This document shows positions 37,241 to 38,281 of a stretch of 64,000 nucleotides of DNA, one piece after another. Both the position numbers and the translations under genes were made by a program. This DNA comes from Eledone cirrhosa. Its lineage: Eukaryota. Within the stretch, counting starts at the first letter, position 1, and each line of letters begins with the position of its first letter. The stretch spans positions 161,386,001 to 161,450,000 of the forward strand of contig OZ024742.1 in NCBI GenBank assembly GCA_964016885.1, written 5' to 3'. The notes under the pieces are model-generated. The model was given only the letters and a program-made list of their open reading frames with translations. It was not told the origin of the DNA and did no database searches.

Positions 37241-37243
<3 letters not shown>

Positions 37244-37742
37244 AAAACAAATAACGAAACGAAATTAAATTTCGTTTCGTTTGTAACTCACTTAAACAAT
37301 TAAGTCAAAAATGTACATCTACATATGCATACTGAAATACTAGTGTGTATATGAATACACACACGTATACATATGTAGGTGTAACAAGTCTTTCACTGGT
37401 TGCTTTACTGTGAGCACCCAGCTATTCTGTATGTAAACACACAGACAAACCGGTTTTTAGAGTCATACTGGTTTTCGGGGGAACACCTTTCCTCTATTAT
37501 CCAGAAAGCCAGACAAGGAATATTGAACTAGTTTCGTTGTTGTTACAACTCATCAGCAATATTTACCTATCTACCGGCCCTTCTGGAGAATTGTAAAAGC
37601 ACATATCGTTATATGCTTTTTCTATGAAAATTAGTAGTGGGCAGACTAATTTGCATAGAGTGTGAGTACGCACCGGTTCAGCGGAGACGATAAAAACAAA
37701 TAACGAAACGAAATTAAATTTCGTTTCGTTTGTAACTCACTT
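37241..37742 (-). mobile_element. Retrozyme-like mini-element A: 449-bp unit plus 53-bp terminal redundancy
   Basis: 37241-37293 is identical to 37690-37742; internal HHR; no ORF; (TA)n flanks. Confidence 0.7.
37519..37563 (-). ncRNA. Type I HHR, family H8
   Basis: aatattg-CTGATGA-gttg/caac-GAAA-ctag-TT-caatatt; 7-bp stem I; palindromic stem III ACTAGT. Confidence 0.85.
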
Positions 37743-37758
37743 TTGTATATATATATAT

Positions 37759-38279
37759 ATAAACGGAAAAAATGAAATGAAATTTCCTTTCCCACTCTTA
37801 GTACGGCTGTTACTTAAATATAAGTATGTACACGTACATACATATATGTATACAGACGCACAGTAGTATGTATATATATATACATACATGCATGCATACA
37901 TATATATATGTACGTATGGATTCACCGAAAATTTATTATAATGCTCGGTGTGTTTGTAAACAAACATCCCGTATTAAGCCGTAGTGTCCAGCAACCATCG
38001 TTGCTCGTTTGTTCAACACTGACAAAGGAACGCTGTACTAGTTTCAAGCTTATTAGCTATCGTCAGCAACATATACCTTCCTGCCAGATTGTTGAACGTA
38101 TATACTTACCTTATGCATATTAACGGCTGAGTAGCCCAATTTGCAAATCGAGTGGGTTAATCGGCCGGGTGCACCAAAAACGATAAACGGAAAAAATGAA
38201 ACGAAATTTCATTACCCACTCTTAGTACGGCTGTTACTTAAATATAAGTATGTACACGTACATACATATATGTATACAG

Positions 38280-38281
<2 letters not shown>
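37759..38281 (-). mobile_element. Retrozyme-like mini-element B: 424-bp unit plus 99-bp terminal redundancy
   Basis: 37759-37857 matches 38183-38281 with about 3 mismatches; internal HHR; no ORF. Confidence 0.7.
38032..38070 (-). ncRNA. Type I HHR, family H9
   Basis: gttg-CTGACGA-tagct/agctt-GAAA-ctag-TA-cagc. Confidence 0.78.

Follow-up and report, generated by a model that had tools for sequence, protein, structure and literature searches.

What are the two small units that lie side by side at positions 37241 to 38281 of the window (the whole 64,000-nucleotide stretch of DNA analysed here), and how did they enter the DNA? Self-comparison of the window bore out the initial annotation of two units of 449 and 424 bp, each of which ends by repeating its own start. 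Both are read on the minus strand. The full pass of unit 1 covers 37241..37689 (449 bp), and its first 53 bp (37241-37293) recur without a difference at 37690-37742, a spacing of 449, as part of a 5′-truncated second pass (37690..37748) whose remaining 6 bp match the undeleted family unit. Unit 2 makes a full pass at 37759..38182 (424 bp) and a 5′-truncated second pass at 38183..38281, so that 37759-37857 and 38183-38281 match at a spacing of 424 with three mismatches in 99 bp. Monomers of family 1 measure 465 to 468 bp; unit 1 carries a private 17-bp deletion near 37290, between two AAG, and since its partial copy retains bases of the deleted stretch, the template was intact. Simple repeats frame the pair: unit 1 has a (TA)n target run at its 3′ end (37051..37243), a short (TA)n at 37747..37758 serves both as 3′ flank of unit 2 and as 5′ junction of unit 1, and unit 2 borders on a (CA)n/(TA)n run at its 5′ end (38282..38367). 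The units are also non-coding, as proposed, with longest ATG frames of 20 aa in unit 1 and of 112 aa in circularised unit 2, the latter running through its TA/CA-rich stretch. Their GC content is 37%, and they fold far more strongly than shuffles (z of -8.6 for unit 1 and -6.7 for unit 2), a property that is not strand-specific evidence. What did not hold up is the description of the two as otherwise highly diverged; they are collinear homologues throughout, with 271 identical positions among 406 aligned pairs (67% identity, z 13.8).

A structure-aware scan recovered the type I hammerhead reported in each unit, together with its stem III ACTAGT and its predicted cut. Hammerhead 1 (37519..37563, minus strand) combines a 7-bp stem I, CUGAUGA, a 5-bp stem II, GAAA and a 2-bp stem III within the palindrome ACUAGU; its core starts at 37556 and cleavage is predicted after 37526 (GUU). 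Hammerhead 2 (38030..38072, minus strand) has a 6-bp stem I, CUGACGA, a 4-bp stem II with a U-U at its base, as in the axolotl HHR_Amex2 described in the available text of PMC7229834, and stem III ACUAGU; its core starts at 38066, with a predicted cut after 38036 (GUA). The same scan counted 10 hammerhead-like motifs across the window, where 30 shuffles averaged 0.03, and an Rfam search of the window returned no matches at the gathering score. In 10 ribozyme sequences from related subfamilies, 94.9% of stem cells are paired, compared to 31 to 50% in slid controls. Seven stem pairs changed on both sides among these sequences, a count which relatedness inflates; such sequences may pass a covariation shuffle without structure.

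The catalytic core also appears to be under constraint. Among the 15 sites of core and stem III, none carries an inherited variant, compared to 109 of the 403 sites elsewhere (p=0.015); new mutations strike the core at the background rate (0.0043 versus 0.0048 per base, 72 loci). This pattern suggests that the core is kept because the ribozyme matters, cleavage itself being a prediction from sequence; counting against our preferred explanation, core conservation could reflect protein binding rather than cleavage. Also counting against it, eight of nine Xenopus retrozyme dimers are reported without in vitro cleavage in the accessible part of 10.64898/2026.07.22.740005.

Because both hammerheads lie on the minus strand, the motif common to the two units, which is indeed present and had been taken for a shared start, marks the 3′ priming end of the RNA, and the repeat is a truncated second pass. 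In family 1, this 3′ region (37241..37298) holds end A at 37241, a site for end B at ∼37293-37298 and, between them, a 13-bp hairpin at ∼37253-37281; the A-to-B stretch corresponds to a Penelope-type tail of ∼70 nt in intact units. In family 2, the 3′ region (37759..37818) has end A at 37759 and a site for end B at ∼37815-37818, giving a tail of ∼56 to 59 nt. Both window copies are single-arm insertions from end A, with 5′ ends that abut simple repeats and no inverted arm.

Genome-wide, both units belong to large families. The 3.0-Gb assembly that holds the window contains 4,898 exact ribozyme motif matches for family 1 and 4,812 for family 2 (numbers of units, not of insertions), and a generic hammerhead motif with stem III ACTAGT occurs at least 40,105 times against 5 for the reversed control. 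Exact junctions of end A with (TA)n number 1,658 and 3,306, respectively, with controls at 0, which supports the proposed (TA)n targeting. Both families recur at ∼90 to 100% identity in contigs labelled as two further organisms. Genomic multimers, as had been anticipated, are present in arrays of up to 38 units of 467 bp and of more than 45 units of ∼428 bp. Type I hammerheads, lack of coding capacity and thousands of copies thus agree with the original assignment to retrozymes, and no LTR-type organisation was seen in the family 1 and family 2 loci inspected. Older family 2 arrays (L141-L147), with up to ∼49 units and higher-order dimer, tetramer and hexamer periods, are retrozymes turning into satellite DNA. 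Further family 2-like subfamilies were seen at L183 and L187, with a ribozyme spacing of ∼484 to 538 bp and compensatory stem changes.

Within these families, the window copies are ordinary single-arm members. Unit 2 looks the older of the two, its three between-pass mismatches, each a minority allele in the contigs examined, comparing with none in 53 bp for unit 1; the younger unit 1 would likely have landed beside it, in the TA run at its 3′ end. A special link between the two families was considered and rejected: family 2 lies near only 2 of 89 family 1 loci, so the pairing in the window reflects a shared target.

The structure of the insertions is most visible in a set of 89 family 1 loci that were sampled by their 3′ end regardless of ribozyme, being the first 90 of the 1,658 matches, all on contig C1, minus L266, which had too little upstream sequence; L218, L219 and L225, which share a junction, were all kept. 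A second, inverted arm was found in 62 of these 89 end-A-anchored loci, the 5′ ends of the two arms meeting mid-insertion. Uncensored second arms end at unit positions 392-398 in 45 of 48 cases, ∼70 nt before end A at 467. In family 2, where both strands are present in 16 of 36 loci, 48 of the 57 outer ends in these loci fall on one of two sites (25 at 416-424, 23 at 362-369). Insertions on (TA)n thus have two fixed 3′ end sites, which lie ∼60 to 70 nt apart and are homologous in both families, site B included. Contrary to expectation, copies are not freely circularly permuted: only their 5′ ends vary. The 142 family 1 5′ ends could be uniformly spread (KS p=0.11), and arms range broadly from 26 nt to >3.5 kb; the length of 1.1 to 1.2 units, initially read as a special signature, is ordinary 5′ truncation. 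TA-rich sequence flanks 90 of 96 complete two-armed loci, 59 of which had been selected on that property, and in the two loci whose canonical ends sit in other sequence, ∼14 bp of the target is duplicated.

The lengths of the two arms are uncorrelated (rho 0.04, n=60), which counts against a circular template. A fold-back origin of one arm from the other was rejected, because the second arm is longer in 28 of 60 loci and because in L095 each arm contains sequence missing from the other. Several apparent clusters of 5′ ends were discarded as well. A pile-up at unit positions 1-8 (11 versus 2.4) is an artefact of the BLAST minimum length, because positions 448-467 yielded no called ends; a slight surplus of A-arm ends around site B (8/82 at 390-409) was a post hoc observation; and a family 2 cluster at 113-115 comes from a sample selected on a motif that starts at 114.

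This anatomy closely resembles the one found in Penelope-like elements (PLEs), for which partial tandems, an inverted 5′-truncated copy and an optional tail are hallmarks in the available text of PMC8557442. According to the accessible part of PMC11167929, AT-rich DNA is cut and extended on both strands by the purified Anolis Penelope protein, which starts at two sites inside the RNA, one at each border of the tail. The combination of two fixed ends, a tail, an inverted arm and (TA)n targets leads us to infer mobilisation by PLE machinery, and we are highly confident that the units are metazoan non-LTR retrozymes that were likely mobilised in this manner. Importantly for what follows, an enzyme which starts internally at two sites, as described there, means that fixed 3′ ends do not refute a circular template.

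Several observations bear on the nature of that template. Differences between units amount to 0.35 per 385 nt inside a locus, 0.39 across arms and 16.4 between loci (111 units, 25 loci). Both arms carry one haplotype in 79 of 81 loci, as opposed to random locus pairs, which differ in 7,885 of 8,911 comparisons (88%), and 33 of the 37 rare alleles found in both arms occur in every unit. Among family 1 A arms, 66 of 89 cross the cut site and 31 of 89 cross it twice. Drop-off at this site shows no excess (1.18 per 1,000 nt versus 0.83 to 1.94), and indel events there number three in 312 passes; with so many arms crossing without excess drop-off or indels, a single cut linear monomer is not enough. 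A ribozyme-made RNA circle would account for all of these template results, and for the spared core, at once. We regard a circular template as fairly probable once PLE mobilisation is granted, and as slightly less so overall.

Taken together, we consider it reasonably probable that the units are related hammerhead retrozymes, likely inserted into (TA)n by a PLE enzyme from fixed internal RNA sites, probably around a circle that had cut and re-joined itself. Tandem loci would be transcribed and the ribozymes would cut the transcripts, likely as dimers because stem III is only 2 bp long and palindromic; monomers would then be ligated into circles. A Penelope RT/GIY-YIG protein would nick both DNA strands with a stagger of ∼14 nt, after which it would start at site A for one DNA end and at site B for the other, each extension ending by fall-off at a random point. 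The two copies in the window would be single-arm products of ∼1.1 and 1.2 rounds.

The alternative that deserves most attention retains the same two-site Penelope insertion and makes the template a long, uncut read-through of a homogeneous donor array, with length growing by DNA duplication and circles, if made, being a side product. Ribozyme cleavage is dispensable for insertion by Anolis Penelope in vitro, where uncut RNA is the main template (PMC11167929, available text), and one test of our own data gave this model room. A locus-unique haplotype had been considered as proof of origin from one molecule, but the marker haplotype of a 19-unit array turned up in 69 copies spread over seven loci, of which one has a 17-unit arm, and none of the seven showed a fixed variant private to its locus. 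That test thus failed and leaves linear copying from a long donor open: the tested array does have a donor whose identical arm is longer, and four of six sister loci hold at least six marked units. Likewise, 13 of 60 loci with at least three segments have variants in only some units (some of them alignment edges), including AB-AB and period-3 patterns, which together with the higher-order repeats of old family 2 arrays indicates that DNA-level duplication or multimer templates do occur; at L223, a variant absent from inner units is common to the outermost units of the two arms. The difficulty is that 12 to 29 consecutive intact ribozymes would have to stay uncut despite the avoidance of the core by inherited variants. 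Long arrays that are young could just as well have been long from the start, and A438G is fixed in all 23 units, across both arms, of one array while being absent in the five sister loci examined; the allele recurs in 3 of 100 loci. On balance, we judge read-through copying rather unlikely. Less probable again, and improbable overall, is a cut linear monomer; on reaching the cut, the enzyme would jump from one end to the other, usually within one molecule and in rare cases to a different one. Mosaic arms, in 2 of 137 loci, and arms of different haplotype, in 2 of 81, count against our preferred explanation. Jumping fits selection on the core, and in L327 (G000:C744:11000-18500) the subfamily of an eleven-segment arm changes in an interval that runs from the cleavage nucleotide at unit position 164 to position 234. 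However, the mosaic arm of L330 switches at 273-305, 5′ ends do not pile up at the cut (6/142 versus 3.3 expected, p=0.12), there are no indel scars, and priming from site A would need a perfect jump in each of the 66 crossing arms.

A different kind of explanation denies the units an RNA life altogether, seeing them as pseudo-LTRs, solo or in tandem, that belong to coding Penelope elements, or as plain satellites spread by DNA recombination. The end geometry is the same as that of coding PLEs in the window, Xenopus retrozymes resemble pLTRs according to the accessible text of 10.64898/2026.07.22.740005, and post-insertion amplification is visible. Yet in a search for coding partners, a PLE protein hit was present in 32 of 280 overlapping loci and lay on the same strand and within 900 bp upstream in only three, each separated from the unit by TA runs. 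No PLE ORF ran into a unit in these 280 loci, and no ORF with RT and GIY-YIG endonuclease was found in, or joined to, units in the loci examined. Conversely, the 30 loci examined out of 10,596 GIY-YIG candidates carried, apart from separate retrozyme insertions, no terminal repeat homologous to the units. The possibility, raised at the outset, that the units are terminal repeats of coding PLEs was therefore not borne out in any locus examined, and dispersed insertions that combine target duplications with two fixed priming ends are not accounted for by recombination. We disfavour this explanation and hold it to be very improbable. The same search qualifies the original proposal of insertion by PLE machinery: the Penelope-type footprint is there, while no autonomous partner with more than ribozyme-level similarity to the units emerged from the window PLEs, the 280 loci or the 30 GIY-YIG loci.

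Returning to the circular template, a more specific version can be put forward tentatively, as something that falls just short of probable: twin-primed rolling-circle reverse transcription, in which two Penelope RTs on opposite strands of one staggered break would start at two fixed sites of one ribozyme-made circle and copy it up to tens of times each. RNA A-to-I edits would then be fixed in every unit, a rare jump at the cut would join subfamilies, and ribozyme activity would be essential for these parasites. Among rare variants common to all units of a locus, read on the RNA strand, A>G changes outnumber T>C by 21 to 8 (p=0.015; control, 39 versus 53). These 21 fall on 17 sites, and a filter for single-locus variants in both arms leaves 7 versus 5 (p=0.58), so editing as the source of the A>G excess is suggestive only. 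Separately, variants within loci are skewed toward G>A over C>T on the RNA strand (88 versus 40, p=4e-5; 46 versus 32 distinct sites; 100 family 1 loci), with no clear dinucleotide context; deamination of first-strand cDNA or an RT error bias would fit. We also entertained AB-AB arrays as the product of dimer circles with a dead B ribozyme. This idea fits L101, with a core change, as well as L141 and L142, with stem mismatches; it is weakened by L101 reading A-A-B-A-B and by private changes in the other arm of L142, and was not used.

How do these families compare with known systems? The metazoan non-LTR retrozymes of PMC7229834 are, in the available text, likewise non-coding tandem units (150 to 450 bp) with one type I hammerhead each, a GC content below 50%, highly self-paired RNA, thousands of copies and co-occurrence with PLEs; family 1, at 467 bp, is slightly longer than that range. 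That study proposes a link to PLEs and target-primed copying of circles, and its northern blots revealed circular RNAs for coral, mussel and axolotl retrozymes, whereas the units here are known from DNA sequence alone. The retrozymes described there are tandem repeats; two fixed priming ends, a tail, inverted arms and (TA)n targeting are features of the present units. Monomers, dimers and multimers with type I hammerheads are also shared with the retrozymes of 10.64898/2026.07.22.740005, which proposes non-LTR retrozymes to be non-autonomous PLE derivatives. In its accessible part, the evidence consists of vertebrate co-occurrence and pLTR similarity, with no mollusc and no insertion anatomy; here, by comparison, the footprint is present and a homologous pLTR was not found in the loci examined. 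Poseidon of Anolis and other PLEs (PMC11167929, PMC8557442, available texts) share the partial tandems, the inverted 5′-truncated copy, the optional tail, microsatellite or AT-rich targets, extension of both strands and two internal start sites, but differ in that our units have no ORF, carry a tail of 56 to 74 nt rather than 30 to 40 and form the whole element from one small repeating unit. MRC1-type non-autonomous elements of Chlamys are multicopy tandems too, but belong, as far as the accessible description goes, to a clade without canonical hammerheads. A literature search limited to main texts, and with most subscription papers outside it, found no description of two-armed, tail-bounded retrozyme insertions or of cephalopod retrozymes.

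In the available texts of PMC7229834 and 10.64898/2026.07.22.740005, the entry of animal retrozymes into DNA is a hypothesis; what the hammerhead contributes to the Penelope cycle is a second question. The present families place an exact Penelope footprint on a non-coding unit of 420 to 470 nt, with start sites predicted at base resolution, and so make both the integration step and the ribozyme role testable with a small RNA and purified protein. An RNA of 450 nt able to direct multimeric insertion primed on two strands could also be of interest to engineers of retroelements, and if the twin-primed rolling-circle reading is true, these families are a genomic record of the process.

The surroundings of the pair hold further elements. 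Directly left of unit 1 lies a Tc1/mariner-like element (35794-37050) with 26-bp terminal inverted repeats in TA, and next to unit 2 a PLE at ∼38350-43617 that has similarity to RT and a direct terminal repeat of 339 bp; the scan found no canonical hammerhead in this repeat. Both neighbours are separate elements. Another, coding PLE (∼31800-35760) is a two-ended insertion with its own hammerhead on each side (35675, plus strand; 31998, minus strand) and a ∼100-nt tail at one end that is absent at the other, the same tail/no-tail ends as in the units. Five further hammerhead motifs, of two types, lie in short PLE-like terminal fragments on (TA)n (12934, 19679, 25259, 30000 and 57630), the one at 19679 inside a 125-bp palindrome (19614-19739). 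Finally, a hammerhead mini-element at 8088-8594 (core at 8432, plus strand; unit of ∼333 nt) has an inverted partial arm and (TA)n ends. It shows no similarity to families 1 and 2, and the 40 genomic matches scored among 2,641 candidates are 89 to 92% identical to it and include tandem partials.
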